64,000 nt of DNA from Escherichia coli (GTDB lineage: Bacteria; Pseudomonadota; Gammaproteobacteria; Enterobacterales; Enterobacteriaceae): NCBI GenBank assembly GCA_902500205.1, contig GCA_902500205.1_4868.1. One strand, 5' to 3'. Under the pieces are notes generated by a model. The model worked only from the letters and a program-made list of their open reading frames with translations, made no database searches and was not told the DNA's origin. This document shows, in pieces, positions 7,163 to 61,804 of this stretch. Position 1 is the first letter of the stretch. Each line of letters begins with the position of its first letter. The position numbers and the translations under genes were made by a program.

Positions 7163-7190
7163 TTTCAGATAGATGTTATCTCAGTGAACC
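7163..7190 (+). promoter_or_regulatory. conserved intergenic motif, copy C (TTTCAGATAGATGTTATCTCAGTGAACC)
   Basis: One of five related ~30-nt motifs, all on the plus strand just upstream of plus-strand genes; contains AGATA...TATCT dyad. Confidence 0.35.
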
Positions 7191-7244
7191 TCTGAAATTT
7201 ACGTTTCAATCAGAGCTTATGTCATGTATTAAGGAGCAATTAAA

Positions 7245-7577
7245 ATGTCCAAAGTCTATCACATTGCGGTATTGCGTCAGGCAACTGACCTTGAAGGCGA
7301 CGGTGAACTTCGAATGCAGGAAGCCATTCTGAGCACCGTTAAAGAACTTAACCAAGCAAACAATTTCGATGCACGCTTCGAGGCGCTGCCTGTAAGCCGT
7401 AACGCTTTCTACGGCAGTCAAATCCTGGCAACCCAGTTTGCGATGGCTTTAAGTGACTTGCGCAATAACCCTAGTCCTGAAACCGCGACGAAGATGAACA
7501 AACTGTCGTTATGGATGAATAACCTGGACGTCCCCGCAGCATCCACTGTAAGTGGTTTGGGGGTGGTTAATGGGTAG
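7245..7577 (+). CDS. hypothetical protein
   Basis: ATG preceded by TAAGGAGCAATTAAA; 110 aa. Confidence 0.6.
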   Translation: MSKVYHIAVLRQATDLEGDGELRMQEAILSTVKELNQANNFDARFEALPVSRNAFYGSQILATQFAMALSDLRNNPSPETATKMNKLSLWMNNLDVPAASTVSGLGVVNG

Positions 7578-7905
7578 AGTAATCCGTGTTGCCAGACCAA
7601 TGCGTCTCAATAGGACGCTGATGATAAATCGTGATATCAGTGAAGCTGTAAAACAGTTGTCGAATATCGACGGTTACACCTTTAAAGTGATAACACTGTA
7701 CGACTACCCAGAAGGCAAAGTTCCGCAAGAGGCGCTGGATAAATTCGTTAATGTATTAGACGATTGCCTTAAGAGCCCAACGGACGTAAATCTTATCAAA
7801 CTAAACACCATGTCCCTTGCGCTGTACCGGCTGCGTAAAATGGGCATTCATGCTCGCATCGGTAAAGGCGACCAAACGTTAGCCGAATACTGGGCTAAAC
7901 AGTAA
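7570..7905 (+). CDS. hypothetical protein
   Basis: In-frame ATG 7570 (MGRVIRV..) overlapping upstream stop by 8 nt. Confidence 0.5.
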   Translation: MGRVIRVARPMRLNRTLMINRDISEAVKQLSNIDGYTFKVITLYDYPEGKVPQEALDKFVNVLDDCLKSPTDVNLIKLNTMSLALYRLRKMGIHARIGKGDQTLAEYWAKQ

Positions 7906-7932
7906 GCTATTTTAAATCCTAAGGAGCATTAA

Positions 7933-8451
7933 GTGAATATTATCATGAACCTGTATACCAAACGGGAACGTAACGTTTTAGAATCTGGCGTTGCCCCGGA
8001 AGTATTGGCTGCGGGGGATATTAGTATCGACCCATTGAAAGTGAAAGTCGCAGAACTGTTCCCTCGCGACGAATGGGACATCTGGTATTTCCGTTGTTCG
8101 TCGGTATTAAATGCAATCAAGCAACTGTCTGATTATCAGCCTGGTCCGTATATCGGTACCTGGCACTGGTACGTTCCACGCACACCAAACTTCCTCTACT
8201 TACACGATGACGATAAACGTACCCATATTCGCACTGTAGCGACGCCTGCGCGTTTGGAGCGTTATCTGGAGCTAATCCACGACCGGCCTCGTAACGAGCT
8301 GCAGAGCATCGTAGAGGTGCTCAGACAGGTACCTTTAGACGGTATACTGGAACTGGACATGAAAATCGCCGATCGTCCGAGACATTACTGGGAATTTTCC
8401 TGGGTAGACGCGAAGTACGAAAACCATAACGTTATCTATCTGAAGCGTTAA
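7933..8451 (+). CDS. hypothetical protein
   Basis: GTG start 6 nt after AAGGAG. Confidence 0.55.
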   Translation: MNIIMNLYTKRERNVLESGVAPEVLAAGDISIDPLKVKVAELFPRDEWDIWYFRCSSVLNAIKQLSDYQPGPYIGTWHWYVPRTPNFLYLHDDDKRTHIRTVATPARLERYLELIHDRPRNELQSIVEVLRQVPLDGILELDMKIADRPRHYWEFSWVDAKYENHNVIYLKR

Positions 8452-8461
8452 GGGGGACAGG

Positions 8462-8782
8462 ATGTTGAACTGGTTACTGGCGCTGATTAACAAGCGACAA
8501 AAACAACTGTACGAAGAAAACCGAGAATTAGCTGCCGCTAACCGTCGTGTACAGGCCGATAACTTGCAGTTAAGACACGACCTCGCGGAACTGGGCGTTA
8601 ATGCGAGTAGGCTCTGCACGCACATAAGTCGCTGTCACGACATTATCGAACGTATTGGACACTACCATCTTACGTCTCCTGCGCGTCGCGTCTATGACGC
8701 GGCCGTCCAGGGATTGAAAGATACCAGGAATGTGTACGACGAGATGTTAGAAGAGTTTAGCAAACGTGAGGATAAATACTAA
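8462..8782 (+). CDS. hypothetical protein (predicted coiled coil)
   Basis: 106-aa ORF with heptad-like Leu/Ala/Arg repeats. Confidence 0.5.
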   Translation: MLNWLLALINKRQKQLYEENRELAAANRRVQADNLQLRHDLAELGVNASRLCTHISRCHDIIERIGHYHLTSPARRVYDAAVQGLKDTRNVYDEMLEEFSKREDKY

Positions 8783-9165
8783 TGGAAATGCCAACGAACA
8801 CCGACTTAGCACTGGCAATCGAACACATGAAAAACCATCAGCTGACGTTACTGAATGCAAGCACAGAAGGGCAACGTCAAGGGTATGCGCTCGTTGCAAA
8901 AGCAGCGTTAGAACTTAACAAGATTCTACTCGCTAAACTTTACGGGCTGGAAAACAGCGTGCTCCATGCGTCGCACCTGGGCGAAGCCAGCGAGTTAGTT
9001 ACGAATGTGCGGCTGTATGCAAGTCGTGAAATGGAACGTTTAACCAACGAATGGAATGTCCAGTGTAACGGCGAGCGTGCTGATAAAGATCCGCGTAAAG
9101 TCGCACTGACGCCGGGCGTGTACATCAAAGACGGCACCATTGACGAATACAGCGGATTTAACTGA
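8782..9165 (+). CDS. hypothetical protein
   Basis: Start overlaps upstream stop; 127 aa. Confidence 0.5.
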   Translation: MEMPTNTDLALAIEHMKNHQLTLLNASTEGQRQGYALVAKAALELNKILLAKLYGLENSVLHASHLGEASELVTNVRLYASREMERLTNEWNVQCNGERADKDPRKVALTPGVYIKDGTIDEYSGFN

Positions 9166-9188
9166 TCGGCGGATAAGGGTGATTGTGA

Positions 9189-9614: not shown

Positions 9615-9846
9615 CGACTATCAAACCGCAGATATGTTGCTACAGTCATTTGTACCGTTACGTGCTGAGTATTACGAAATCGCGTTCCTGGGCGATGAAT
9701 ATTGTGTCCGCACGCAAGGGCGTGAATACGAAGCAGTTCGCGTACCACGAACACTCGGCGGGGTGATGATACTTATCGCTAATATCGAAGCACTCAATGC
9801 GAAATGTGCGTTATACATCGCACAAGGAGGTCGCAATGGATTTTAA
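9541..9846 (+). CDS. hypothetical protein
   Basis: GTG 9541 shortly after AAGGAGAA; a longer in-frame start (9526) would overlap the upstream gene more. Confidence 0.35.
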   Translation: MSISLQGLTIHEIQKYLLEGGKLTDDYQTADMLLQSFVPLRAEYYEIAFLGDEYCVRTQGREYEAVRVPRTLGGVMILIANIEALNAKCALYIAQGGRNGF

Positions 9847-11613: not shown

Positions 11614-11650
11614 GATGACGCTTATCCCAAGGGTAGCGAATAAAGCAGTA

Positions 11651-11687
11651 CCCTACTCCTTCGGGAGTAGGGTTTCTTCTTTTTTTG
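11651..11687 (+). terminator. intrinsic terminator (UUCG tetraloop)
   Basis: CCCTACTCC-TTCG-GGAGTAGGG followed by TTTCTTCTTTTTTTG. Confidence 0.75.
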
Positions 11688-11706
11688 CCTAGTCCGATTA
11701 CAATTA

Positions 11707-11740
11707 TTTTCAGATATATATTACTTAGGTGAGAGTTAAC
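11707..11740 (+). promoter_or_regulatory. conserved intergenic motif, copy A (TTTTCAGATATATATTACTTAGGTGAGAGTTAAC)
   Basis: 32 of 34 nt identical to copy B at 59957; followed by palindrome AGAGTTAAcaaTTAACTCT and then a gene with AAGGAG RBS. Confidence 0.4.
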
Positions 11741-11784
11741 AATTAACTCTTATCTAATCGACCATTATCTTAAGGAGTTTTAAC

Positions 11785-13117: not shown

Positions 13118-13915
13118 ATGTCTTTTACTTCAAAACAGAATCTGCTAAAACTCATCAACGAAGAGAATAAGATAAGCCCACCGCTTACCTTTGACGATGT
13201 TGATATCGGACTGCCGGAGGTTGTGTCAGTAGACGGTCGTGATTCGGAGGTAGTCCTTACCTCGAAGATGCGCGGTGATGAAGGTACGCAAGTGATTGTG
13301 GACTACCATCGTCGTCCATTAGAGGACTACCTTAAAGGCGATGTTGCCTTTGGAGACGAGGACGTGCAAACCACGCACGACTTACTCGCGGCGATTAACG
13401 AGCGTTTTAATCTGTCTATCTTACCTGAGGATATCGAAGATAACCCCATTGATGGACAGACGCACACAGTCGTTGCTGTTGAAACTTCCCACGAGTGGCG
13501 AAGTCAAGCGGTCATCGAGCTGAAACCTGCTACACCTCTGGCAGAAGTAATAACCAATACAGAGTTGAGCGGTCTTCTGTACCCGGATCACCAGGACATC
13601 CAGTTGGGTCAGGCGTATATCTATTCGCGCGACATCGATTGTAGCCACATCTCTCGTTTCCTGAGCCTCTTAGCGGTCGGTATCGAAGTAGATGACACGG
13701 CGTTAGCAATCGAACTCAACAAATGTGTTCCTGAGATTTGGGTGGCTGAAGATACCCCATCCCCGTATAACTTGCGTGGTGCTACTGTCGTATTCGACGG
13801 CGTACCTGCAGACTTACCGGGAGCAAATACGGCGTTCGCGAAAGTCGTGTCAGTGCAACTGACCGATAAATGTACGAACTTCCAGGGCACCCTCAACTTA
13901 CACTTTAACAACTAG
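13118..13915 (+). CDS. family-A paralog 1 (265 aa)
   Basis: Shares the N-terminal family-A pattern (..L..IN..N....P.T.......G.P......GRD...V...) and the C-terminal LHFNN-type ending with its neighbours. Confidence 0.65.
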   Translation: MSFTSKQNLLKLINEENKISPPLTFDDVDIGLPEVVSVDGRDSEVVLTSKMRGDEGTQVIVDYHRRPLEDYLKGDVAFGDEDVQTTHDLLAAINERFNLSILPEDIEDNPIDGQTHTVVAVETSHEWRSQAVIELKPATPLAEVITNTELSGLLYPDHQDIQLGQAYIYSRDIDCSHISRFLSLLAVGIEVDDTALAIELNKCVPEIWVAEDTPSPYNLRGATVVFDGVPADLPGANTAFAKVVSVQLTDKCTNFQGTLNLHFNN

Positions 13916-13925
13916 GAGGGTATAG

Positions 13926-14768
13926 GTGTCTATTTACGATAAGCCCTCGAAAGAGATGTTGTTAGATGCTATTAACCGACAGAACGGATTAACGGCCAAT
14001 CCACTCACATGGGAGCAGGTTGCAACTGGCTTCCCTGAGTCTGTCCAAACGCCTGGCGCTGACCGGAATACGCGTGTGCTCTTATACGGGTTGAACGGCA
14101 AGGGCTACAAAGGCAACGTTACGCTCGAATACGACCGTATCGAAATGGAAATTCTGTTCAGGAACGTAATACCGGTAGTCGTTGCCGACCCGGTAAATAA
14201 ACTCTCTGAGTTGTTGCCGTTTCTGAATGCGAAATACGGCTTGTCTTTAGTTGCCGACGATATCGTTGACCAGTCAGTAAAAGATTTGGGAGAAAGCTGG
14301 TTAATCGATGTGACTATTAAGCCCGGTTGCTTGGCCTGGCAAGGTGGTTTCCGTTTACGCTTTGCGAAGTTCTTCCCGAACTTGGCGGATGTGGTGACGG
14401 ATGTTGACCTCAGCGCAATTATCGCGCCGTTCGTGGTTGCTAGTAAACCACAGGCCGAGTATGTGGCGTATGGTTACGATTGGACTGAACTGCAAAAACA
14501 GTTCACCACCGATTGGGTTTACAACCGTGCAATCACTGCAGCGGATGTTGAGTTGTTGAATGAAGTGGTGCCATTAAAGTTTGCATATGTGACGGGGGCG
14601 AATGCGCAACCTGAACAAATTGCACTCCAAGGTGCACGATTTATGGGGATAACTTCAGTCACACCGAACGATAGTTACAACCCCGATTATCAGCGTGTGG
14701 CGATTATCAAGCTAGCTGCGGACAGCAACTACGCCGGTAATCTCATCCTTCATTATCTCCCGATATAA
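13926..14768 (+). CDS. family-A paralog 2 (280 aa)
   Basis: GTG start after AGGAGG; N-terminus MSIYDKPSKEMLLDAINRQN...ADRNTRVLLYG...YKGNVTLEYDRIEMEILF fits the family pattern. Confidence 0.65.
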   Translation: MSIYDKPSKEMLLDAINRQNGLTANPLTWEQVATGFPESVQTPGADRNTRVLLYGLNGKGYKGNVTLEYDRIEMEILFRNVIPVVVADPVNKLSELLPFLNAKYGLSLVADDIVDQSVKDLGESWLIDVTIKPGCLAWQGGFRLRFAKFFPNLADVVTDVDLSAIIAPFVVASKPQAEYVAYGYDWTELQKQFTTDWVYNRAITAADVELLNEVVPLKFAYVTGANAQPEQIALQGARFMGITSVTPNDSYNPDYQRVAIIKLAADSNYAGNLILHYLPI

Positions 14769-14778
14769 GGATTTTGAC

Positions 14779-15624
14779 ATGCCACTTTTAGCCACAGCTG
14801 TAAAGATTATTATCGCGGAGGTTAACGTCGAAAACAATCTCGATTTAAAAGTCGAGGATGTTGTTTTTGGTGTCCCTGCGATTCCAACGTCTGACGAAGA
14901 CTTGGCAAAAGCTAACGGTCACAACGCGATGGTGCGCATTCAGGCATTGGCCACGGCTAATGCTATCGGTGCCACTACCGTCTATTACGATCGTGTTGAC
15001 TTCGCAGACATGTTTACCGATCCGGACGGGATTCAACCTTTACGTGTTCCTGCGCGTCTCGATGCTGTTTACCAGATGCATGACGTGGTCGGGTTAATTA
15101 ACCAGTATTACGGTCTCAGCCTTAAACCTGCAGATGTGGTGAATACCGAAATCGACAGGAAGACATGGCGTGTGGATCTGATTGCCACGCCCACTTCCTT
15201 AGGTTGGATAGGGCAACAACAGGTACAGCTGTTACCAGGCGATGCGTTGCTTCCTGCAAACTTCGAACCGTTAACAGTGATGCCTTACGAGTATCCGTAT
15301 TTCAACATCAAGGTCGGTCAAGGTGCAGTTTATTCGTATCCCTGGCGCTTTGATAATTTCGCGGAGGAATTTCAACGACTAGGTGCTGCGATAACCACAG
15401 AACGTCTGGCACAGATTCTCAAAACGGTCACCGGTGATAACTGGACAACATACCGTAACCCTATCGACTTTAACCTTCGTGAAGCCGTCGTCGTCTATAA
15501 CGGGCGTAACAAAGCGGAATTACCAACCAACCCAGCAGTCGACAACGTGCTGATTGTGGAGCTGTCGTTGTACTGTCTGAATTTTGGCGGGCGTTTGTAT
15601 TTGCATTACAACGACCCTGATTAA
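14779..15624 (+). CDS. family-A paralog 3 (281 aa)
   Basis: RBS AAGGA; conserved ..YYDRVDFADMF.. segment and C-terminal ..LYLHYND. Confidence 0.65.
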   Translation: MPLLATAVKIIIAEVNVENNLDLKVEDVVFGVPAIPTSDEDLAKANGHNAMVRIQALATANAIGATTVYYDRVDFADMFTDPDGIQPLRVPARLDAVYQMHDVVGLINQYYGLSLKPADVVNTEIDRKTWRVDLIATPTSLGWIGQQQVQLLPGDALLPANFEPLTVMPYEYPYFNIKVGQGAVYSYPWRFDNFAEEFQRLGAAITTERLAQILKTVTGDNWTTYRNPIDFNLREAVVVYNGRNKAELPTNPAVDNVLIVELSLYCLNFGGRLYLHYNDPD

Positions 15625-15645
15625 TCCTGAGTAAAGGAAGTAAGA

Positions 15646-16557
15646 ATGAAACCTTTAAACAAAACGTCCGATAAGCTGGTTCTGGATTTTATTAATGAGA
15701 AAAACCCAGACGCAGAACTGGAACTTTCTAAAATAACGCTCGGCACACCGACCCCTATTAGCGATGAAGGTGCTGATCGCAATACCAGCATGACCCTGAC
15801 TGCGAAAAAGAACTCCGGGTACATCGGTACTCAGGACGTGACTTATAATCGCCTGGAAGGCGGTGCGCTGTTCCGTAATGTAACAGCATACCTCGACGTT
15901 AAACTGCCGAAAACCACCACAGACCTGCTGACGACCCTGAACACCCAATACGGATTGAAGCTGACCGAAGACGATATCGTTCCGGCGGCTATTCCGGAAA
16001 ATACCAACCCGCCGCTGACTAACCCGAACGATCCGGACCCAGCACCGGTTGACCATGTCATTACCTTCAAAGAAGACTGCTACGCTTATCTGGGCAGCAT
16101 CCCGGTTAAAATCGGTGCTAAGCCTCAGGTTGGTGAACGTCTGAGTCTGGTGGTAACACAAACCAAGCTCGACGGCCTGGTTTACCCAGATGGTCCAAGC
16201 GAAGCGAAGGGTCAGGGCTACATCTACTCTTACGGTGTAGACTGCACAGCAATCGCAGCATTCCTGAAAGTACAGGCGAAAGGTGTTATCGCTGGCGACT
16301 CTGCATTCCCGGTTGAGCTGAATAAAGTTGTGCCGGAACTGTGGGTTGCATCTGATGAGCCTGCGGATTATAACCTGAAAGGCGCTAACGTGTTGTATGT
16401 TGGTTCTACTGCTGACGATGGCACTGCTTCAGGCGACGAACCTAAGAAACCGGTTGAAGGTGCAAACACTGCTTACAACCAGGTTCTGCTGCTGCAGCTG
16501 GATGACACTCTGTGCACCAACTTCCAGGGCATCATGTACCTGCACTTTAATGCCTAA
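15646..16557 (+). CDS. family-A paralog 4 (303 aa)
   Basis: RBS AAGGAAG; N-terminus ..KLVLDFINEKNPDA...ADRNTSMTL... and C-terminal CTNFQGIMYLHFNA almost identical to paralog 1 ending. Confidence 0.7.
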   Translation: MKPLNKTSDKLVLDFINEKNPDAELELSKITLGTPTPISDEGADRNTSMTLTAKKNSGYIGTQDVTYNRLEGGALFRNVTAYLDVKLPKTTTDLLTTLNTQYGLKLTEDDIVPAAIPENTNPPLTNPNDPDPAPVDHVITFKEDCYAYLGSIPVKIGAKPQVGERLSLVVTQTKLDGLVYPDGPSEAKGQGYIYSYGVDCTAIAAFLKVQAKGVIAGDSAFPVELNKVVPELWVASDEPADYNLKGANVLYVGSTADDGTASGDEPKKPVEGANTAYNQVLLLQLDDTLCTNFQGIMYLHFNA

Positions 16558-16568
16558 TTAGGCCTCGC

Positions 16569-16610
16569 TGGGAGGAGGAAATCCTCCTCCTGGCTACTCC
16601 TTTCTTTTTT
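16569..16610 (+). terminator. intrinsic terminator
   Basis: GGGAGGAGGA-AAT-CCTCCTCC hairpin followed by a T-run. Confidence 0.6.
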
Positions 16611-16626
16611 GGCCGAGGAGGCTATT

Positions 16627-17466
16627 ATGGCTTTATATAGTCTGTCTCAGCGACAATATCTGTACGATGCGATTAATGCCGAAAACCCGGATGCTGTTCT
16701 ACCGATGGGTTTAGACAATGCTATCATCGGTACGCCGAAAGCAATCACACCGACAGCAAGCGGTGCCAACACCGAGATTATCATTCGTGGTCGTCAAGGT
16801 CGTGGCTATATCGGTCCTCAGACGTTCCGTTATAAGCGCTTGTCGCTGAACGACTTATTTAAGAACATGACACCTCAGGTAACTGCACCGAATGCCTACG
16901 GTTGGTTGAACGTGGAGTCGAAACGTACTGCGTTTGCGCAGAACCTGAACGGTCGTTATGGATTAAACCTGGTTGCAGACGATATCCCAGAACAATACGT
17001 TTATCTGAACGTAAACAACACGATGCGTATTAACGCTAGCTGTATCCAATACACTGGCAGCATCACCTTTATGTCTATCCGGGGTAAGAATAGCCTCGAA
17101 GACCTCGTGGTAAACGACATCTTGTTGGCTTTGAACCACCCTGCAGCAGCAAGCACTGGTAAGAAATACATGGGCTTCTTGACGTACGGGGAAGACTTTA
17201 CCGATGAAGTGCAGGTTATGGCCTCGTTTAAGAACGGGCGAATGGATGTAGGAAGTAACTTTGATTTGGGTTACACGTCCAATCTGATGGCCACATTGGT
17301 CGCACGTGGGGTACCGTCGTTTGATCCGACGAACTGCACAATTACCCGCTACAAAACGAGTGAGTTGGCGACCGCCAATAAAGCGTACGATAACGTATTG
17401 CTGATTACCGGCATTCAGAACGACCCGAAAGTAATCGGCGAGTGTATGTTGCACTACAACAACTAG
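16627..17466 (+). CDS. family-A paralog 5 (279 aa)
   Basis: ATG 16627 after GAGGAGG; C-terminal ..MLHYNN. Confidence 0.65.
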   Translation: MALYSLSQRQYLYDAINAENPDAVLPMGLDNAIIGTPKAITPTASGANTEIIIRGRQGRGYIGPQTFRYKRLSLNDLFKNMTPQVTAPNAYGWLNVESKRTAFAQNLNGRYGLNLVADDIPEQYVYLNVNNTMRINASCIQYTGSITFMSIRGKNSLEDLVVNDILLALNHPAAASTGKKYMGFLTYGEDFTDEVQVMASFKNGRMDVGSNFDLGYTSNLMATLVARGVPSFDPTNCTITRYKTSELATANKAYDNVLLITGIQNDPKVIGECMLHYNN

Positions 17467-17476
17467 GAATTAGCGA

Positions 17477-18364
17477 ATGGCTATTTATCAACCTTCTAAA
17501 GACGTCCTGTTGGCAGCAGTGAACGCACAGAACTCGCTTGCTGTTAAGATGACTGACATCATCTGGTCCACGCCAAAGGACATCCGTGGTACGGAGAAGG
17601 AAACGCTGACTAACCGTAACACGCAAATTAAAATTACGGCAGATGGGGTAACGGGCTCTACCTGGTCGGGTAAGAAAAATGTCTTCTACAACCGCATGAA
17701 AGTCGAAGACTTGTTAGTGCTGATCGGTGACACGTTGGCGATCGGCCCATCCAACGAAACCTTGTATGCGGCCATTCCTGGACTGAACCAACGTTACGGT
17801 TTTGTTCTGGAAGAAGCTGACCTGCAGGACGCAGATATCGAGTGGAACGGTGATAAGACCGAAGGAACTGTGCGCGTTGTTGCACATCCAGAGTCTATCG
17901 GTTGGGTTGGACAGGCGACATTTAAAGTCGTGAAAGGTGATGAGTCGTTAGTCTCTGCAGTCACCACTAACGTCCTGACCGGTCTGAAATACCCGAACGG
18001 TCAGATGGGTTCCGAAACCGTTACTGCGGTCATTGCAGAGGTTTATTCCTACCCGTACAACTTCACTAAGTACCGAGATGCTCTGCTGGCATACAAGCCG
18101 GGTATTCTGTCTGGACAGCCGTTAACGGATATGGTTAACCTGCTGAAAGATATTACGGGTACTGCATGGGTAGCGACCACTTCCGCTTCCTACGGTTTGG
18201 CGGGCGCGGAGGTTATCAGCGTTGGTCTGAATGACCCTGTTGCAATGCCGACAAACGCGAAGTACAAGTATGCGCTGGTGTTGAAACTGCCTGTTACCTG
18301 TACCACCATCGTCGGAACGTTGTATCTCCAGTTCAACGATCTGGACGATCCAAGCGAGGTATAA
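17477..18364 (+). CDS. family-A paralog 6 (295 aa)
   Basis: N-terminus MAIYQPSKDVLLAAVNAQN...NRNTQIKIT...; C-terminal ..LYLQFNDLDD. Confidence 0.65.
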   Translation: MAIYQPSKDVLLAAVNAQNSLAVKMTDIIWSTPKDIRGTEKETLTNRNTQIKITADGVTGSTWSGKKNVFYNRMKVEDLLVLIGDTLAIGPSNETLYAAIPGLNQRYGFVLEEADLQDADIEWNGDKTEGTVRVVAHPESIGWVGQATFKVVKGDESLVSAVTTNVLTGLKYPNGQMGSETVTAVIAEVYSYPYNFTKYRDALLAYKPGILSGQPLTDMVNLLKDITGTAWVATTSASYGLAGAEVISVGLNDPVAMPTNAKYKYALVLKLPVTCTTIVGTLYLQFNDLDDPSEV

Positions 18365-18367
18365 TTG

Positions 18368-19195
18368 ATGATCAACTATGCTAAGCCGTCAAACGAGTTG
18401 GTCTTTGACCTCATTAACCGGGATAACCCAAACCTACCTATTAAAGCGTCGCCGGCAAACTGCTACGTGGAGAAAGTGACACAGGTTCCCGTTAATGCAG
18501 CTTCCAACAACCGCAATACGTCGGCACGCTTGCGCGGTATTCAGGGTTCCGGATTTCGAGACGCAATCACCGTTTATTACGACCGTGTGAACTTAGCGCG
18601 GTTATTGCCGTGGGGTCCTTCTGTCCAGGCGCAGTTCGTCACGTTTGACGCTCCCAACCTCCACTCAGCCTTTTCGGTGCTCTTGGATACTTACGGAGTA
18701 AACTTCTCTGCAATCGATATCTATAACCTCCCACTGGCGGGCCCCAATACCCCAAATTACACCAATACACAGAACATCGTAGCGCTATCGACATCTCCGG
18801 CTTATATCGGTTCTGCGACGTTGCGTTATAACCGTGGTTTACCGGTACTAGACACTTCGGTGAAATCGGATGTCTTGAATGCGATTCAAGAGCCTATCTC
18901 GCCGTCTCTCGGTAAGAAGTGTATTGATTTGTTGACGTACGGTATTGACTTTACCGCGTATAAAAACCTACTGACAGTAGATGCTTCTGGCCTACCGCAG
19001 TGGGCTGGTTTGCGTAAGGTGTTGGATGACCTGGGTATTCCGAACTACGCGGGGCCACTGAACAGTAACACCGTTCAGGATGTGCCGACTTCCACCGCTC
19101 AGTTCGCTAACAAATCGTACGACCGCGTGGTTATCCAAACGGGCATCGATGAGGAAGGCGTGAAAGGCGTGGCGTACTACCACTATAACAGCTAA
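18368..19195 (+). CDS. family-A paralog 7 (275 aa)
   Basis: MINYAKPSNELVFDLINRDNPNL...NNRNTSARL...VYYDRVNLARLL; C-terminal ..YYHYNS. Confidence 0.65.
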   Translation: MINYAKPSNELVFDLINRDNPNLPIKASPANCYVEKVTQVPVNAASNNRNTSARLRGIQGSGFRDAITVYYDRVNLARLLPWGPSVQAQFVTFDAPNLHSAFSVLLDTYGVNFSAIDIYNLPLAGPNTPNYTNTQNIVALSTSPAYIGSATLRYNRGLPVLDTSVKSDVLNAIQEPISPSLGKKCIDLLTYGIDFTAYKNLLTVDASGLPQWAGLRKVLDDLGIPNYAGPLNSNTVQDVPTSTAQFANKSYDRVVIQTGIDEEGVKGVAYYHYNS

Positions 19196-19200
19196 GTGTA

Positions 19201-19226
19201 GGGGCTCTTCGGAGCCCCCTCTTTTG
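19201..19226 (+). terminator. intrinsic terminator (UUCG tetraloop, short T-run)
   Basis: GGGGCTC-TTCG-GAGCCCC followed by CTCTTTTGG. Confidence 0.5.
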
Positions 19227-19242
19227 GCGATGCGGAGTCCCT

Positions 19243-20655
19243 ATGCTATTTTACTCGAAGGAGTCGGCACTGCTTGTATACGACCAAGTCAATCGGGATA
19301 ACCCTGATTTAGTTGTTAAGCTGACGCCGGCTATCGCTGCTTTAACCGGCGGCCCAACTTCAGTTACGTTAAACCAACGTAACACCAAAGCTGTTTTCAC
19401 CGGGTATCCAGGGACAGGTGTACAAGGTAATGTTACCGTGTACTACGACCGGATTAACCTGGCCACTTTATTTAATTTTGTGCCGACTGTGGCTATCAAA
19501 GATACAGTCTTAACGGTACGAGACGCGCTACCTGCAATAAACGACGCATTGGGGCTTACATTAGTTGCTTCTGATTTGCAGTCACCTGACGCAAGTTTAC
19601 CTAAACCGAGCGCTTCGCCGCAGACGTTGAAATTAAATATCTCAGGTAATTGCCCTGCGTTTACAGGCAGCTTAACGATACGTTATACCGTCCCGAGCGG
19701 TGCAATTTACCCCGATTCTGGACCTGGCCCTAAAACGTTGCTGCAAGGTAACACTATCGCGGGTTATTTCGGAACAACCACAATTGCAGAGTTGTTTACA
19801 CACTCTCAACTTCTTAATGCCACTATATCGGCCGGTGCGTTACCACCGGTACATTCTGGTGCCGAAGGTTGGTACAAGTTCTTTTACCAGGGTAGGGTTA
19901 TTTACCTCCCGATCAGTCCTGTCGCTAGCTCCATCTCCTGGAATACGTTATATACAAACGGACTCGTTTACGGAACAGATGATAATGGTAAATACCCTGC
20001 GGCGACGCCCGTTAACCAGGGACGCATCATTAGCTTTACAGGCGCAGACAACAAAAGGTTTTACTTCCGCGTTCGTCTACCTAGTGCTGGGAAGGACCCA
20101 TACGTCAGCGGCACCCCAACTGCCGCTGAGTTAGCAGGTAGTGAGTTTGAGATGTTCAACTTTCTGTATAATGGAACGTGGGACAAACCGATTAACAGTT
20201 ACTGGACGCTGTTCTGTTTATTGAAAGATACACTGAAGACCAACGTCGCCTATCATCGCATGGCGACGTTGTCTGGAGCCAGTTGGACAAACTTAGGAAA
20301 ATCATCGAGCGCAGGCAACTACTACTGGTTCCCGGTGCTGGAGTTGGTGGATAAATCCACAGTTACCTTGGGTTTAGAAGATATCCATGGTGCGGTAGAT
20401 TACAGTCTCCAACCGTGCAGCGTGTCCGCAGAAAACACGTTTAGTCTCAAGCCGTTGGTGCTCGGTAATCCAGATACTACCGATTTCGAACCGGTAGTTG
20501 TTACTTCAGAAAACAGTTTCGCACTGCATCCGCCTGCTTTAATGCTGCCGAAGACAGTCGATTTCCAACCTATTGCGGCTACCGCTGAAATGTATACGCC
20601 CCCTGACAAGACAACGTTAACGTCTCTTAACGGTGAACTGGACGGCTTTAAGTAG
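19243..20655 (+). CDS. family-A N-terminal domain protein with extended C-terminal region, ends NGELDGFK (470 aa); cassette copy 1, gene a
   Basis: N-terminus MLFYSKESALLVYDQVNRDNPDL...NQRNTKAVF...VYYDRINLATLF; contains SGPGPKTLLQGN..GYFG; C-terminal SLNGELDGFK. Confidence 0.7.
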   Translation: MLFYSKESALLVYDQVNRDNPDLVVKLTPAIAALTGGPTSVTLNQRNTKAVFTGYPGTGVQGNVTVYYDRINLATLFNFVPTVAIKDTVLTVRDALPAINDALGLTLVASDLQSPDASLPKPSASPQTLKLNISGNCPAFTGSLTIRYTVPSGAIYPDSGPGPKTLLQGNTIAGYFGTTTIAELFTHSQLLNATISAGALPPVHSGAEGWYKFFYQGRVIYLPISPVASSISWNTLYTNGLVYGTDDNGKYPAATPVNQGRIISFTGADNKRFYFRVRLPSAGKDPYVSGTPTAAELAGSEFEMFNFLYNGTWDKPINSYWTLFCLLKDTLKTNVAYHRMATLSGASWTNLGKSSSAGNYYWFPVLELVDKSTVTLGLEDIHGAVDYSLQPCSVSAENTFSLKPLVLGNPDTTDFEPVVVTSENSFALHPPALMLPKTVDFQPIAATAEMYTPPDKTTLTSLNGELDGFK

Positions 20656-20666
20656 AGGTATCATCT

Positions 20667-21665: not shown

Positions 21666-21674
21666 GGGGCAGTC

Positions 21675-22598: not shown

Positions 22599-22611
22599 CG
22601 GAGTAAAAGCC

Positions 22612-24108: not shown

Positions 24109-24120
24109 GAGGTAACGACA

Positions 24121-25107: not shown

Positions 25108-25109
25108 TC

Positions 25110-32369: not shown

Positions 32370-32492
32370 AAGGTACCTTTCAGTGTTAAAAAAATTTCTC
32401 GTTTAACGGCCAACTTTACTGTCATATTAAGCCCGCTATGTGGTTTTTGGAATGTTTAGTATGCACCGTTCGCCTACTACGAGGAAACAACC

Positions 32493-36533: not shown

Positions 36534-36555
36534 TGCAGGTTGCTCCAGTATATTT

Positions 36556-55867: not shown

Positions 55868-56185
55868 ATGTCTTTATTTCAAACCATTAAAAGTGCATTA
55901 GAGCGTAATGATGCAGACAGTGCCTTTACTGCGTTACAGAAAGCCAGTAACGGGAAGCTAGACAGCGTCTTTGCTAACAATCAAAGAATGCGCTTTTACA
56001 AAGTCGGGGAAGTAGACCAGTTCTACGACGAACTGTTTACGGGAGTAGTGCAAAGCGCGGTATACGCCATACCGACTGAACAATTAAGTCAGTTTGAAAA
56101 AGGGATGCGTTACCAGCGGTTAAGTAACGACTACTCATTACTGAATCTGGCTATCGATGACTGCATCGTACTGGTTGTATACTAA
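55868..56185 (+). CDS. hypothetical protein (105 aa)
   Basis: ATG after GAGGAG. Confidence 0.5.
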   Translation: MSLFQTIKSALERNDADSAFTALQKASNGKLDSVFANNQRMRFYKVGEVDQFYDELFTGVVQSAVYAIPTEQLSQFEKGMRYQRLSNDYSLLNLAIDDCIVLVVY

Positions 56186-56187
56186 GT

Positions 56188-56217
56188 TTTTACAGATAGA
56201 TGTCATCTTAGTGAGCA
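56188..56217 (+). promoter_or_regulatory. conserved intergenic motif, copy D (TTTACAGATAGATGTCATCTTAGTGAGC)
   Basis: Related to copies C and E; followed by TGTGTATAAAC (extended -10-like) and a small hairpin before gene 56306. Confidence 0.35.
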
Positions 56218-56305
56218 TTGTGTATAAACCCACAGTCGCTTAAACACCAACTGTTCTTTAGTAACAGTTTTTGGTCACTTTAGTGTACTTTAAAGGAAAT
56301 ACCAA

Positions 56306-58186: not shown

Positions 58187-58195
58187 GGTGAGTGT

Positions 58196-59286: not shown

Positions 59287-59291
59287 TTTAT

Positions 59292-59334: not shown

Positions 59335-59365
59335 ACTTAACTCAAATTAATTTGAGGTGTGGTAT

Positions 59366-59953
59366 ATGACAGAACGTATTTTACGACTGCAAGAGAACAG
59401 GTTAGAAGACCTGCACGTAATGCGTAGTCGTGGCTTGTTTCCGGTGGGGCTTGATGTGAGTGGATTATTAACTGCCGCAGAGCACGGGGACAAGGTCATT
59501 ACAATGCATTCACGTGGGAACGAAGTGGTCTCTGCGATTTTCATCGATAAGGTTATTCCGGACTCGGAAAGTGGTAAGGTGGCGGGACACATCATTTACG
59601 AATACTTTCGCAGCATTCTATACGAGGAAAAGATAAATGTCAAAACTTTTATGGAGTACGCTAAGCGAAATAACTACATCGATGCGCGACTGATGGTCAC
59701 GGAAGGCACCCCAACTATAAACGGTAAAGTCCACCATCGTTTACTTGGAGCACAGTTGCCGAGACTAGGCGAGATACCAACGACGATAGAGCTGCACCAA
59801 AAAACAGATTGGCGACACAAAATCGAAGTGCTTCACAAGCTTTACGATTTATCGATCGTTCAAATCAAACTGGTGGACTTTACGCCTGCAAATATGCAAA
59901 TCGCTAAGCGCGCGTTGGGTTTTCGTATTCTTAACACAACCTTCACATTGTAA
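59366..59953 (+). CDS. hypothetical protein (195 aa)
   Basis: ATG 59366 after GAGGTG that lies inside a conserved CTCAAA..TTTGAG hairpin. Confidence 0.5.
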   Translation: MTERILRLQENRLEDLHVMRSRGLFPVGLDVSGLLTAAEHGDKVITMHSRGNEVVSAIFIDKVIPDSESGKVAGHIIYEYFRSILYEEKINVKTFMEYAKRNNYIDARLMVTEGTPTINGKVHHRLLGAQLPRLGEIPTTIELHQKTDWRHKIEVLHKLYDLSIVQIKLVDFTPANMQIAKRALGFRILNTTFTL

Positions 59954-59956
59954 AAT

Positions 59957-59990
59957 ATCTCAGATATATATTACCTAGGTGAGAGTTAAG
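59957..59990 (+). promoter_or_regulatory. conserved intergenic motif, copy B (ATCTCAGATATATATTACCTAGGTGAGAGTTAAG)
   Basis: Near-identical to copy A; followed by GAGTTAAgagaTTAACTC palindrome and then a terminator-like hairpin. Confidence 0.4.
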
Positions 59991-60002
59991 AGATTAACTC
60001 AA

Positions 60003-60033
60003 TGGCTACCTTCGGGTAGCCTATTCTTTTTTA
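60003..60033 (+). terminator. intrinsic terminator-like hairpin (UUCG tetraloop) downstream of motif B
   Basis: GGCTACC-TTCG-GGTAGCC followed by TATTCTTTTTT. Confidence 0.65.
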
Positions 60034-60057
60034 AACCAATCGACTATAGAGTAAAAC

Positions 60058-60459
60058 ATGACTATCAAGAAGTTCTTACAAACAGTAGTAGTTCTGGCCG
60101 CATGTGGCATCGCAGCAACTTATGCTTTCGATAAGCCAGACGTGACTGAATACGTATCTGCGGATTCCGATTACGGTATTGCACCGAATGAAAAACCGGA
60201 ACTGATGCGTGAGGTCGAACAGTTACAAATCTACAAACTGACGGATGGTAAGAACTGCACAGGGCTGGTTATCGCTGATAAGAAACTGAAAATGTATCAG
60301 CGATTAACCGACATATCGTGCGATCAACCAAAAGTCACTTCGGTCAGCGTATCGCCGTTGGAATTACCAGATCTGGTTGCTGTGAGTTTTTATCACAACG
60401 ATGTGCTCGTTGGTCGCATCACCCTCATTCGTGGAGATATCAAAAATGAAATGCAATAA
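60058..60459 (+). CDS. secreted protein, probable lipoprotein (133 aa)
   Basis: N-terminus MTIKKFLQTVVVLAACGIAATYA: hydrophobic core with L-A-A-C lipobox-like sequence. Confidence 0.55.
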   Translation: MTIKKFLQTVVVLAACGIAATYAFDKPDVTEYVSADSDYGIAPNEKPELMREVEQLQIYKLTDGKNCTGLVIADKKLKMYQRLTDISCDQPKVTSVSVSPLELPDLVAVSFYHNDVLVGRITLIRGDIKNEMQ

Positions 60460-60937
60460 CGTTAATCACCACTTGGCCAAAGTGGTGCTTTTTACTGTGC
60501 TGTTGATGGCACTTGTTGTTGGGCTACGGATTTCTAAGGCGCACGCTGACGAATTCAGCGGGTTCCAGGGCAGTATTAACGGCAGCATTCCAGCATATAC
60601 CCGCACCATCAATCTTAATGATAAGCCGTTCTGGTGCAATGCGCGTAAGCTGCTTAAGAAACAGTGTCGTGTAGTTGACATATCCTTCAACGGACGTGTC
60701 GCTATCGTACACCGTCCGGGCGATAAAGATTGCCCAGGTGGTTGGTGGGGTGCAGTCGACCGTCACAACGGTGACGCGTTATGGCTTATCCCTAATCGTG
60801 ATGAACTATCAGTGGAGAAAATTTGCAGCAAAGATTTCAGGGCCGGTTTTGTACAGCGACCTGATACCAAAACTCTGGCCTCCATCGCTATGTACTACGG
60901 TATGGAAACCATCAAAACAATCGACTATTCAGAATAA
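60446..60937 (+). CDS. secreted Cys-containing protein (163 aa)
   Basis: ATG 60446 after GGAGA; signal-peptide-like MKCNNVNHHLAKVVLFTVLLMALVVGLRISKAHA; six Cys in mature part. Confidence 0.5.
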   Translation: MKCNNVNHHLAKVVLFTVLLMALVVGLRISKAHADEFSGFQGSINGSIPAYTRTINLNDKPFWCNARKLLKKQCRVVDISFNGRVAIVHRPGDKDCPGGWWGAVDRHNGDALWLIPNRDELSVEKICSKDFRAGFVQRPDTKTLASIAMYYGMETIKTIDYSE

Positions 60938-60959
60938 CTCAAAAAATTGAGGTGCTATT

Positions 60960-61370
60960 ATGAAACATTTTTTATTACCAGTTTTACTTGCTACTCTGGC
61001 CATTAGCTTCTTCGCTCGTGCTGGAAGTATCGAGTTACCAAAAGTTGTTAACGATCACGAATACGGCGGAGAGTTCTGGTGCCAGAACTCTGACGTACAA
61101 GGCGGTAGCTGCCAGATCGTTGCGATGTCCGATAACAACCGTTACCTGTTAGTGAAAACGATGGGCGGTGTCGCATGTGGCGACCCTGAATACGGGGTTA
61201 TTAACATGGCAACCGGGCAAGCCGAATCCATGAACTATAATGATAACCAAGCCTGCAGTGGTGAAGCCGTTGCTGAGTTTACACGCGACCCAGGCGACAA
61301 TGCCCTGACGGTTATCATGTACGACCCTACGATTAAGAAAAACGTAGGCATCAATAAACTCGACTTTTAA
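60960..61370 (+). CDS. secreted small protein (136 aa)
   Basis: Signal-peptide-like MKHFLLPVLLATLAISFFARA; RBS GAGGTG within conserved hairpin; Cys-containing mature region. Confidence 0.55.
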   Translation: MKHFLLPVLLATLAISFFARAGSIELPKVVNDHEYGGEFWCQNSDVQGGSCQIVAMSDNNRYLLVKTMGGVACGDPEYGVINMATGQAESMNYNDNQACSGEAVAEFTRDPGDNALTVIMYDPTIKKNVGINKLDF

Positions 61371-61383
61371 GTAAGGAAACAAC

Positions 61384-61767
61384 ATGCGTGGATTTATGGG
61401 TATTATCGCGGCGGTGTTCTTGACCGCTTCCGCTTCAGCTACAACCAGCGTAGAAGATTTACTGCCGGGCACACCGTATCAGTACAACCCGCCTTCATTC
61501 GAAGTCTGTACTGGCGACGATGGCAGATGTGAAGAAGTCAGCCGTCACGACGAGTATATCCTGGTCCACGCAAAGGGCGAGGAAACTTGTCCGGCTGGTT
61601 ACTACTTCTTGTTGAACTCAAAGGCACAAGAGATTGTGCCGGTAGAGACAATAACGTGCGACCCGACGCTTCGCGCGTCGCTCGCTTACAATACGAAAAC
61701 CAAACAGCGCCTCCTGGTTATTGAACAACAAGGCGAAGTGCGTGGTTCAATAGCGCTCGACCAGTAA
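61384..61767 (+). CDS. secreted small protein (127 aa)
   Basis: Signal-peptide-like MRGFMGIIAAVFLTASASA; Cys spacing loosely parallel to the preceding gene. Confidence 0.55.
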   Translation: MRGFMGIIAAVFLTASASATTSVEDLLPGTPYQYNPPSFEVCTGDDGRCEEVSRHDEYILVHAKGEETCPAGYYFLLNSKAQEIVPVETITCDPTLRASLAYNTKTKQRLLVIEQQGEVRGSIALDQ

Positions 61768-61775
61768 CCGAAAAG

Positions 61776-61804
61776 TTTTCAGACAGATGTTATAACGTGA
61801 GATG
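61776..61804 (+). promoter_or_regulatory. conserved intergenic motif, copy E (TTTTCAGACAGATGTTATAACGTGAGATG)
   Basis: Related to copies C and D; followed by hairpin GTGAGATG-ACGACC-CATCTCAC. Confidence 0.35.

Follow-up and report, generated by a model that had tools for sequence, protein, structure and literature searches.

Results

Probable early promoters of an SPN3US-like jumbo phage

Five repeats in the DNA analysed here (the window, a stretch of 64,000 nt from an Escherichia coli assembly) are very probably early promoters of an SPN3US-like jumbo phage that are read by the phage's own virion RNA polymerase. On sequence identity, the window is phage DNA of this kind (Seoulvirus, Chimalliviridae), with megablast matches of 98% to Escherichia phage EC001 and 95–97% to SPN3US-type Salmonella phages. 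No transcript data for the SPN3US-like phage group turned up in the literature searched. The sequences themselves show what the motif is, how many copies it has, its bias in strand and position, its conservation and its association with the non-virion polymerase genes; homology with phiKZ and AR9 is the basis on which we infer where transcription starts, that it is early and which polymerase reads the motif.

The repeated motif spans ~33 bp, t..AAaa.aTtTcAGATAgATATTAtcTa.gtGAg, and occurs in exactly five intergenic copies on the + strand, as the initial annotation had reported (copies 1 to 5, at 7163, 11707, 56188, 59957 and 61776; Table 1). Its placement in plus-strand gaps before plus-strand genes is likewise borne out, every copy being flanked by the stop codon of one + strand gene and the start codon of the next. 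CAGA follows the stop codon after 48, 97, 7, 7 and 12 nt in copies 1 to 5; the gene before copy 4 ends at 59953, and the upstream part of this copy overlaps its final codons and stop. Copies 2 and 4, first given as identical at 32 of 34 positions, agree at 30 of 34. The pattern CAGAYAKATRTYAY has five exact matches in the window, which are these five copies; dinucleotide-preserving shuffles contain a mean of 0.03 matches and reach five in 0 of 100, so that the copy number exceeds chance. Scored with a 42-column weight matrix derived from EC001, a close relative, the window copies reach 22–47 bits (36.9, 45.7, 33.8, 46.9 and 22.0 for copies 1 to 5), and no score above 5 bits is seen in the rest of the window on either strand. 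The peak score stays below 7 bits in 19 of 20 shuffles and reaches 15.6 bits in one.

EC001 has 24 copies of the motif genome-wide, every one on the + strand, and the reversed control of this search returns no copy. In Erwinia phage phiEaH2, which belongs to a different genus, it is present 22 times, again all on the + strand and many at orthologous sites, including 32857 for copy 1 and 84334 for copy 3. The predicted start position, 6 nt after TTAY, is a G in 45 of 46 copies.

Table 1 Predicted promoters, hairpins and leader elements in the window.
Feature	Position	Strand	Details
Predicted early promoter, copy 1	7154..7186	+	class B core CAGATAGATGTTAT 7166-7179; predicted +1 G 7186
Predicted early promoter, copy 2	11699..11731	+	class A core CAGATATATATTAC 11711-11724; predicted +1 G 11731
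Predicted early promoter, copy 3	56181..56213	+	core CAGATAGATGTCAT 56193-56206; predicted +1 G 56213
Predicted early promoter, copy 4	59949..59981	+	class A core CAGATATATATTAC 59961-59974; predicted +1 G 59981
Predicted early promoter, copy 5, weak/deviant	61768..61800	+	core CAGACAGATGTTAT 61780-61793; +1 would be G 61799 or A 61800
GC-rich hairpin upstream of copy 1	7125..7165	+	CCAGCCA...TGGCTGG, then T-rich tract; read from sequence
Intrinsic terminator upstream of copy 2	11650..11683	+	10 bp, GC-rich, T-run
Weak AT-rich hairpin	56249..56274	+	ACTGTTC...AACAGT + T5; hairpin 56249-56269
Intrinsic-terminator-like hairpin	60004..60031	+	GGCTACC-TTCG-GGTAGCC + T-run; hairpin 60004-60021; terminator scan
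Terminator-like hairpin	61822..61866	+	11 bp, 17-nt loop with CCCCAACACTT, T5; hairpin 61822-61860
Weak stem-loop in leader, doubtful	7190..7215	+	CTCTGA...TCAGAG, 14-nt loop
5′-terminal stem-loop	11731..11751	+	GAGAGTTAA-CAA-TTAACTCTT; 9 bp, from +1
5′-terminal stem-loop	56213..56241	+	from +1
5′-proximal stem-loop	59983..60000	+	GAGTTAA-GAGA-TTAACTC; 7 bp, from +3
Stem-loop	61797..61818	+	GTGAGATG-ACGACC-CATCTCAC; 8 bp, overlaps predicted start
Second conserved leader element	11755..11766	+	TAATCGACCATT; 18 nt before ribosome-binding site
Second conserved element	60037..60048	+	CAATCGACTATA; directly 3′ of terminator T-run
Second conserved element	61866..61877	+	TAATCGACTATT; directly 3′ of terminator T-run

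Likeness to virion-polymerase promoters

Bioinformatic searches can find a motif of this kind in every jumbo phage with RNA polymerase genes of its own (PMC7598289). In phiKZ-related phages (Chimalliviridae; phiKZ, 201phi2-1, OBP and N1M2) the early promoters serve the multisubunit RNA polymerase of the virion, and the window motif contains the phiKZ core TATATTAC, which is found within copy 2. The predicted OBP consensus TTTYARRYAKATATTATYWWADTG, given with the N1M2, 201phi2-1 and phiKZ early promoters in Table 2 of PMC7058600, matches four of the five window copies at three or fewer mismatches against 0.02 expected, with 2 of 24 positions deviating in copy 1, two in copy 2 and three each in copies 3 and 4; copy 5 gives no match at this threshold. 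Copy 2 also lies two mismatches from the 201phi2-1 consensus, and the N1M2/OBP sequence TTTCARRYAKATATTATYWAAGTG (PMC7058600) is nearly the same as that of the four copies, at 2–3 mismatches. Of the options offered in the initial annotation, this published consensus supports the one in which the motif is a promoter specific to the phage and the leader behind it is structured. Shared with the phiKZ-related phages are the A/T-rich upstream tract, the ~20–30 copies per genome, all co-oriented with the genes, the location ahead of non-virion polymerase genes and small genes of unknown function, and the conserved G 6 nt past the core. A start 6 nt after the consensus is the rule in phiKZ and phiR1-37 (PMC5312081). 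The early promoter of the Bacillus jumbo phage AR9, AAATATATATTAT-(6N)-G+1 (PMC5312081), has an identical architecture, an extended AT-rich element ending in TATATTAY, then a spacer of 6 nt and a G as the start, and the enzyme that reads it is an injected virion polymerase, as proposed here; AR9 differs in its uracil-containing DNA, in not being a chimallivirus and in the flanks beyond the core.

The genes for the phage RNA polymerases fall beyond the window and were studied in EC001, which is 98% identical. There the motif heads the operons of all five homologues of phiKZ non-virion polymerase subunits (gp55, gp68, gp71-73, gp74 and gp123), and no motif copy lies upstream of the EC001 virion RNA polymerase genes. 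This distribution fits phiKZ, whose non-virion polymerase genes belong to the early class (PMC4848604, PMC13282480).

Copy 5 is the weakest of the five and has a spacer before GTG that is 1 nt shorter. The orthologous phiEaH2 spacer has no motif and keeps the hairpins. Because of the aberrant spacer and this motif-free counterpart, copy 5 may be weak or inactive as a promoter.

Stem-loops at the start of the leaders

Class A comprises the promoters that end in ...TATATTAC, among them copies 2 and 4. Across EC001 and phiEaH2 a stem-loop at +1 to +3 follows 14 of 14 class A promoters versus 8 of 32 in class B (Fisher p = 1e-6), and among distinct IMG/VR leaders one is found in 31 of 43 versus 6.5 in shuffles (maximum 14 of 200). 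The stems vary among paralogues and orthologues with pairing kept, as in GATAGA/TCTATC versus GAGAGA/TCTCTC; in the phiEaH2 counterpart of the copy 3 leader (84354 onward) the +1 hairpin is kept in a different sequence. The initial annotation of a hairpin after each copy holds unevenly. Whole-leader folding compared with shuffles is strong for copies 4 (z −4.1) and 5 (z −5.3) and moderate for copy 3 (z −1.8); after copy 2 the clear signal is confined to the local +1 hairpin (z −3.3 over 40 nt). The stem-loop after copy 1 is no more stable than shuffles (z +0.5) and is therefore counted as doubtful. Individual hairpins are weak, at −5 to −9 kcal/mol. At the position of the 61797..61818 stem-loop, phiEaH2 has a different hairpin without a promoter motif, so that this stem-loop may be part of the 3′ end of the upstream operon.

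The E. coli ompA and T7 phi10 leaders are 5′-terminal stem-loops that stabilise mRNAs, and a helix starting 0–2 nt from the 5′ end is the geometry known to block 5′-end-dependent decay. The predicted helices here also start 0–2 nt from the 5′ end, but unlike those of ompA and T7 phi10 they are short and AT-rich, with predicted energies of −3 to −10 kcal/mol. Shielding of the early mRNA from such decay is the role that we tentatively favour for the 5′-terminal stem-loop. Since many stems open with a shared GAGAGTT, part of their similarity could reflect constraint on the initially transcribed sequence or cassette duplication.

Terminators around the promoters

A terminator precedes the promoter at 6 of 24 EC001 and 7 of 22 phiEaH2 promoters. 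The hairpin upstream of copy 1 is called by neither terminator scan owing to its 10-nt loop and interrupted T-run. The reverse order, in which a terminator-like hairpin with a T-run follows the motif, was correctly noted in two cases and judged odd; it is indeed unusual, copies 4 and 5 being the only such cases among the 24 promoters of the genome. The two terminators stand between copy 4 and the gene start at 60058 and between copy 5 and the gene start at 61897. A strong terminator between promoter and gene is hard to square with simple promoter function at these two copies. The copy 5 terminator has a phiEaH2 counterpart with a conserved loop and a different stem, and the TAATCGACTATT element is conserved at the orthologous phiEaH2 site 91035. 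The gene at 56306 has a 93-nt leader, which contains the weak hairpin that follows copy 3; this hairpin is kept in phiEaH2 with compensatory changes (ACTGTG/CACAG).

At copies 4 and 5, and weakly at copy 3, the promoter sits immediately behind the preceding stop codon, so that the terminator of the upstream operon comes to lie downstream of the promoter. The two post-promoter terminators thus probably end upstream operons, and they may also yield short early RNAs. Most early transcripts would stop there, as RNAs of ~50 and 65–70 nt with two hairpins each, and the gene beyond would rely on read-through or on the AATCGACYATTA element. We are more confident of the identity of the promoters than of what the hairpins do or what becomes of the terminated transcripts.

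Alternative explanations

The initial annotation saw in part of the motif a loose resemblance to promoters of single-subunit T7/SP6-type phage RNA polymerases. The SP6 promoter is ATTTAGGTGACACTATAG, and copies 2 and 4 have the 8-nt TTAGGTGA in common with it as well as a purine-rich GAGAG start like that of T7-type transcripts. However, no CACTATA core follows, what is conserved is the AT-rich ATATTAY region further upstream, and the large ORFs of the window contain no RNA_pol-type domain. The search for a phage-encoded polymerase found in the EC001 and phiEaH2 annotations only split beta/beta′-like genes of multisubunit type and no single-subunit enzyme, and the polymerases described for SPN3US, as for the phage group, are two multisubunit enzymes (PMC5105663, PMC7598289); this kinship is effectively refuted. 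A strong host sigma-70 promoter of the extended −10 type (TATATT/TATTAT), used by the bacterial polymerase early in infection, would account for the AT-rich −10-like core, with the upstream A/T-rich tract as a possible UP element. It is highly improbable, as a scan finds no + strand −35/−10 pair at any of the five sites, promoter-like matches in the motif regions do not exceed shuffles, and the conserved CAGATA and start GTG are not sigma-70 determinants. Moreover, the same motif is a virion-polymerase promoter in relatives, by prediction and, in phiKZ, by mapping, and infection by these relatives is rifampicin-resistant (PMC7598289, PMC8244752, PMC13282480). The annotation further suggested RNA processing at the motif or binding by a regulator. 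In favour of such a processing site or phage operator are the inverted repeat of 5 bp seen in class B cores (AGATA-N5-TATCT) and the adjoining hairpins, yet this reading gained no positive support and is very unlikely. Copies 1 and 2 lie downstream of a terminator-like hairpin (weak at copy 1), where little RNA is expected; all copies have one orientation and a fixed distance to the conserved G; class A cores are not palindromic; and the hairpin sequences vary among copies, so that they do not form a common operator.

Two further readings concern the units around the promoters. The copy 4 and 5 units could be dedicated small early RNA genes or attenuators, not mRNA promoters, with the promoter-proximal RNA of ~50–70 nt as the functional product, a possibility we consider real but unlikely. 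In phiKZ, 5′UTR terminators abort >90% of transcripts and generate abundant ~71-nt RNAs (PMC10914365), and both window units share this order of promoter, short structured RNA, intrinsic terminator and gene start, the phiKZ RNAs being observed experimentally and those of the window predicted. Two stable stem-loops and a U-run directly follow the predicted start (z −4.1 and −5.3), in the only such arrangements among 24 promoters, and the two genera share the loop CCCCAACACTT but differ in its stem. Against this, hairpins of the copy 5 type occur in phiEaH2 without a promoter motif, unlike the phiKZ arrangement, and can simply terminate the upstream operon; phiEaH2 lacks an equivalent of the copy 4 terminator at its promoter 87449, and there is no Rfam match. 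Less probable still are mobile or recombinogenic terminator-promoter-leader cassettes, like T4-type promoter-early stem-loops, in which the similarity would stem from duplication and shuffling as much as from selection. The whole unit does recur (terminator, motif, GAGAGTT-type hairpin, AATCGACYATTA and ribosome-binding site), and the intergenic cassette of copy 2 is the sole DNA-conserved part of an 800-nt query in Erwinia phages, with several matches per genome. Such mobility is compatible with promoter function, and the copies kept at orthologous positions across genera argue for conservation in place.

Proposed early transcription

For early promoters read by the virion enzyme, a five-subunit RNA polymerase would be ejected from the phage together with the DNA and would recognise the ~33-bp AT-rich element t..AAaa.aTtTcAGATAgATATTAtcTa.gtG from about −32 to +1, with its ATATTAY core near −10. 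Transcription would start at the conserved G 6 nt past TTAY (Table 1), and the resulting transcripts would span the clusters of small + strand genes of unknown function that lie downstream of the window copies. Class A transcripts would carry a leader of ~53 nt whose first 18–25 nt fold as a stem-loop from +1 to +3, followed by the conserved AATCGACYATTA element and then the ribosome-binding site. Such a leader opening in a stem-loop, belonging to about one third of the copies here, sets this group apart from phiKZ and 201phi2-1, as phiKZ/201phi2-1-type promoters in IMG/VR have a stem-loop in 4 of 33 cases, the shuffle expectation. The promoter element itself is of a known kind, and the hairpin at the start of some transcripts is specific to the phage lineage.

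Five intergenic repeats of the phiKZ-related early-promoter type

The overall arrangement of the intergenic repeats in the window is that of the initial annotation: all five copies lie at the positions it had reported, on the plus strand (5/5), each between a plus-strand stop codon and the next plus-strand start codon. The core pattern CAGAYAKATRTYAY matches five times in the 64-kb window, at these same five copies, where dinucleotide-preserving shuffles give a mean of 0.03, so that the copy number exceeds chance; the motif is real and lies far beyond it. With a 42-column weight matrix the five copies score 22-47 bits, and the rest of the window, on both strands, scores at most 5 bits. The element [AG]T[AG]T[TC]A[TC] is present in 5/5 copies within a conserved block of ~33 bp, and the exact phiKZ core TATATTAC is found in two of the five, 11707 and 59957 (copies are named by their starts). 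These two, previously given as 32/34 identical, agree at 30/34 positions. Copy 61776 is the weakest by far and has a spacer 1 nt shorter. When the five raw regions are aligned with MAFFT, the core alone aligns and the leaders (+1 to start codon) fail to align. A loose 11-mer with one mismatch is uninformative (11 matches against 5.3 expected), and the search had to rely on the longer core and the weight matrix.

Early-promoter consensuses predicted for related phages are tabulated in the Klebsiella phage N1M2 paper (PMC7058600, Table 2): TBYAWWWWWTTTCARRYAKATATTATYWAAGTGWA for N1M2, BSHAWWWWWTTTYARRYAKATATTATYWWADTG for OBP, ...TATATTACDWHDGTG for 201phi2-1 and TATATTAC for phiKZ. Promoters of the phiKZ type have an extended conserved AT-rich element (TATATTAC or an ATATTAT core) near -10, which all five window copies share. 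The OBP consensus matches four of them with 2-3 mismatches in 24 (0.02 expected), copy 61776 being missed because of its shorter spacer, and the 201phi2-1 consensus matches copy 11707. The experimentally mapped early promoter of AR9, AAATATATATTAT-(6N)-G+1, has the same architecture as the window motif (PMC5312081). Transcription in phiKZ and phiR1-37 starts 6 nt past the consensus (PMC5312081), and a G stands six nt past it in 45/46 copies from Escherichia phage vB_EcoM_EC001 (EC001), a near-identical relative, and Erwinia phage phiEaH2, of a different genus. Judged by sequence, the five repeats are very probably virion-RNA-polymerase early promoters of the phiKZ-related type, a well-known family; their start sites and timing are predictions for the SPN3US-like lineage, and a literature search for transcriptomes or mapped start sites of SPN3US-like or Erskinevirus phages returned nothing. 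Elements like these are by now established in phiKZ, AR9, OBP and relatives, with consensuses published for close relatives. Such motifs are stated to exist in all RNA-polymerase-encoding jumbo phages (PMC7598289), and whether the SPN3US motif itself counts as published rests on the wording of that review.

Positions of features in the window and of polymerase genes in EC001
Feature	Location	Strand	Details
Motif copy	7163-7190	+	predicted +1 at 7186
Motif copy	11707-11740	+	predicted +1 at 11731; class A
Motif copy	56188-56217	+	predicted +1 at 56213
Motif copy	59957-59990	+	predicted +1 at 59981; class A
Motif copy	61776-61804	+	predicted +1 at 61799/61800
Intrinsic terminator-like hairpin	60004-60021	+	7 bp (5 GC), tail TATTCTTTTT
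Terminator-like hairpin	61822-61860, T-run to 61866	+	11 bp (8 GC), then T5
AATCGACYATTA element	11755-11766	+	intergenic
AATCGACYATTA element	60037-60048	+	intergenic
AATCGACYATTA element	61866-61877	+	intergenic
AATCGACYATTA element	60918-60929	+	intragenic
TAGTATG	32457-32463	+	
TAGTATG	52985-52979	-	
TAGTATG	55707-55701	-	
Paralogous gene array	13118-26009	+	thirteen consecutive genes, 22-43% pairwise identity
Two adjacent radical-SAM genes	34298-36569	-	within structural-gene region
phiKZ gp55 homologue (E 1.5e-32)	EC001 MGA_25		operon headed by motif copies 16651 and 16744
phiKZ gp68 (sigma-like) homologue (E 3e-6)	EC001 MGA_33		operon headed by copy 25201
phiKZ gp71-73 homologue (E 1.8e-29)	EC001 MGA_37		operon headed by copy 30360
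phiKZ gp74 homologue (E 8.9e-39)	EC001 MGA_38		operon headed by copy 30360
phiKZ gp123 homologue (E 3e-20)	EC001 MGA_79		operon headed by copies 74670 and 74868

Other readings of the motif were weighed against this assignment. The initial annotation had seen a loose likeness to promoters of single-subunit phage polymerases, and TTAGGTGA is indeed shared with the T7/SP6 type; this kinship ends there, as the 23-bp -17..+6 element with its CACTATA(G) core is absent and TTAGGTGA is followed by GAGTTAA or by nothing. No RNA polymerase domain is found in the nine largest ORFs of the window, and the EC001 and phiEaH2 annotations list beta/beta′-like subunits only, with no single-subunit polymerase. 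A host sigma-70 promoter is rejected as well, since none of the five copies has a plus-strand -35/-10 pair at 16-18 nt spacing, and sigma-70-like sites in the scanned regions are no more numerous in total than in shuffles. A common operator, in which the hairpins would carry a shared binding sequence, is rejected because the stem sequences differ between copies. Rfam covariance models at gathering score give no match in the whole window.

Genome-wide distribution and the polymerase genes

The window belongs to the SPN3US group (Seoulvirus) by megablast, with 98% identity to EC001 and 95-97% to SPN3US-type Salmonella phages. Phages of this type form part of the phiKZ-related, nucleus-forming lineage and carry a pair of multisubunit RNA polymerases: the first travels in the virion and is ejected along with the DNA, and the second is made after infection (PMC5105663, PMC7598289, PMC13282480). 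The genome-wide search proposed with the initial annotation was made by scanning the whole EC001 genome with a matrix seeded from strict motif matches. It yields 24 copies, 24/24 on the plus strand and none in a reversed-sequence control, with the consensus t..AAaa.aTtTcAGATAgATATTAtcTa.gtGAg. The same matrix finds 22 copies in phiEaH2 (22/22 on the plus strand, controls 0), many at orthologous places. Over 800 nt around copy 11707, DNA conservation with Erwinia phages is confined to the intergenic cassette, which matches several places in each Erwinia phage genome.

In a phage that makes no use of the host enzyme, the injected virion polymerase would have to transcribe the genes of the non-virion polymerase. 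The latter are thus expected behind early promoters, and the virion polymerase genes are not. As the polymerase genes lie outside the window, homologues were sought in the 98%-identical EC001, where the motif precedes 5/5 non-virion polymerase homologues, as expected for early promoters, and the virion polymerase genes MGA_45 and MGA_238/239 have no copy ahead of them. The virion subunits are annotated in EC001 and proven by proteomics in SPN3US (PMC5105663); the phage-encoded polymerase that the initial annotation had suggested looking for is accordingly present in EC001, as multisubunit virion and non-virion genes. PDB sequence searches with EC001 MGA_24 and MGA_78 came back empty. All genes that follow the five window copies are small and of unassigned function, as is typical of jumbo-phage early genes; Pfam and PHROGs return a function for none of them.

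Tandem early-promoter copies ~93 nt apart occur in EC001 (16651 and 16744) and in phiEaH2 (182312 and 182403). The EC001 pair precedes the gene for a 617-aa protein, itself immediately ahead of the gp55 homologue, in a position that corresponds to that of the nuclear shell protein gp54 in phiKZ; a PDB sequence search with the 617-aa protein gave no match. Dual start sites are reported for phiKZ gp54 (PMC8244752).

A 5′-terminal stem-loop in one promoter subclass

The promoters fall into two subclasses by the end of the core. Class A ends in ...TATATTAC, with a median leader of 53 nt, and class B in ...ATATTAT or a variant, with a median leader of 35 nt. A leader was scored as having a helix if 4 or more base pairs form, the first of them at +1 to +3, with a free energy no higher than -3 kcal/mol; the loop lengths of these hairpins differ, and they were judged against shuffle and genomic controls.

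Helices at the predicted 5′ end of leaders and in controls
Set	Helix	Comparison
Class A, EC001 and phiEaH2	14/14	
Class B, EC001 and phiEaH2	8/32	Fisher p = 1e-6 vs class A
Distinct leaders after exact class A motif matches, IMG/VR (50 stretches)	31/43	
Composition-matched shuffles of those 43 leaders	mean 6.5/43	maximum 14 in 200
Genomic 32-mers starting with GAG	25%	
phiKZ/201phi2-1-type early promoters, IMG/VR	4/33	shuffle expectation 3.1

From copy to copy, and from one orthologue to another, the stem changes in sequence and still pairs, as in GATAGA/TCTATC of EC001 and GAGAGA/TCTCTC at the matching phiEaH2 site, which favours a structure in the transcript over a shared protein-binding sequence. 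The claim that a hairpin follows each copy is doubtful at 7163, where the structure is no more stable than that of shuffled sequence (z +0.5). In contrast to class A, promoters of the phiKZ/201phi2-1 type have short leaders without a hairpin, and the structured leader therefore characterises the enterobacterial lineage rather than the whole promoter family. This tie of a 5′-terminal stem-loop to one promoter subclass and one lineage is a modest new point. A helix at the extreme 5′ end protects bacterial mRNAs from 5′-end-dependent decay, as in the ompA and T7 phi10 leaders; the class A helix would shield early mRNA in the same manner, and mRNA protection is our preferred reading of it.

Terminators upstream of and inside leaders

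A terminator lies just upstream of the promoter in 6/24 EC001 and 7/22 phiEaH2 copies, and in the window this order is seen at copy 11707 and, in a weaker version, at 7163. The initial annotation had also placed terminator-like hairpins after two copies, and a GC-rich stem-loop with a T-run does follow both 59957 and 61776. Across EC001 and phiEaH2, terminators inside leaders are limited to these two (EC001 164259 and 166079) and the phiEaH2 ortholog of 56188. The promoter begins 7-12 nt past the preceding stop codon in 56188, 59957 and 61776 only. On the simplest account, close packing has left the terminator of the upstream operon on the downstream side of the promoter; this is supported by the phiEaH2 spacer orthologous to 61776, which keeps both hairpins and the T-run and has no promoter motif. 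The confinement of the terminator-in-leader arrangement to one gene cluster is likewise a modest new point.

If the phage polymerases obey the predicted terminators, transcripts from 59957 and 61776 would mostly stop after ~50 and 65-70 nt, respectively, as two-hairpin RNAs. Termination at some 5′UTRs of phiKZ yields abundant RNAs of ~71 nt (PMC10914365), whereas here such products are predicted only. In the second hairpin of the table, the 17-nt loop CCCCAACACTT is conserved between genera (window against phiEaH2 at about 40975-41020, L007 numbering) and other bases make up the stem, a hint from sequence comparison that the loop may be recognised by something.

The 93-nt leader of gene 56306 (56213-56305) has two hairpins that are kept in both genera. 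Its phiEaH2 counterpart (34354-34438, L007 numbering) shows a compensatory change, ACTGTT/AACAGT against ACTGTG/CACAG, the loop CTTTAGT is conserved, a T-run follows the second hairpin, and there is no Rfam match. This leader may be attenuator-like.

Two further intergenic elements

A second conserved intergenic element, AATCGACYATTA (consensus [T/C]AATCGACYATT(A)), occurs on the plus strand only in EC001 and phiEaH2 and is kept at orthologous sites in both genera. Its distance is 17-19 nt to the ribosome-binding site and 30-32 nt to the start codon in 35/59 distinct occurrences; an early promoter precedes fifteen, while some eight have no early motif and stand immediately behind a terminator hairpin. 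The element could act as a further class of promoter or as an operator in translation. Reviews hold that the non-early promoters of phiKZ-related phages cannot be predicted from sequence.

A more far-reaching and rather improbable reading is that class A units are composite control regions undescribed in chimalliviruses, joining an early promoter, the lineage-specific 5′ stem-loop and AATCGACYATTA at its fixed distance of 30-32 nt from the start codon, with early small RNAs. Here AATCGACYATTA, which also stands alone behind terminators, could be a promoter class of its own, recognisable from sequence, through which the non-virion polymerase drives middle or continuous expression or, alternatively, AATCGACYATTA could be an operator that shuts off translation of early mRNA, and the two promoter-proximal terminators may yield dedicated early small RNAs.

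EC001 has only 9 copies of the heptamer TAGTATG on both strands, where about 32 are expected; seven of these stand 14-45 nt ahead of genes on either strand, several of which are virion or structural genes. The heptamer ends in TATG, the core of the phiKZ late promoter (PMC7598289), and may therefore be a late promoter of this phage.

Other features of the window

By sequence comparison the thirteen consecutive genes on the plus strand form a large tandem array of tail-fibre-related paralogues. DUF7941 is found in three of them, and an adjoining 725-aa protein has DUF7941 together with a Gp38 tail-fibre adhesin domain. In the radical-SAM pair, the gene at 34298-35626 matches Pfam Radical_SAM at 9.6e-15 and the second is radical SAM by EC001 annotation.

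Implications for SPN3US-like giant phages

Beyond prior descriptions, the analysis finds the lineage-specific 5′ stem-loop, three leader-terminator units and two extra motifs; the latter, AATCGACYATTA and TAGTATG, are candidates for the non-early promoters that have been missing. The repeats provide a promoter map for the SPN3US-like giant phages, a model group, in which five early transcription units are predicted for the window and 24 genome-wide, each start site being predicted to the nucleotide. The map flags genes of unassigned function that are likely made in the first minutes of infection, and as such is of use in the search for host-takeover and anti-defence genes and in phage engineering.
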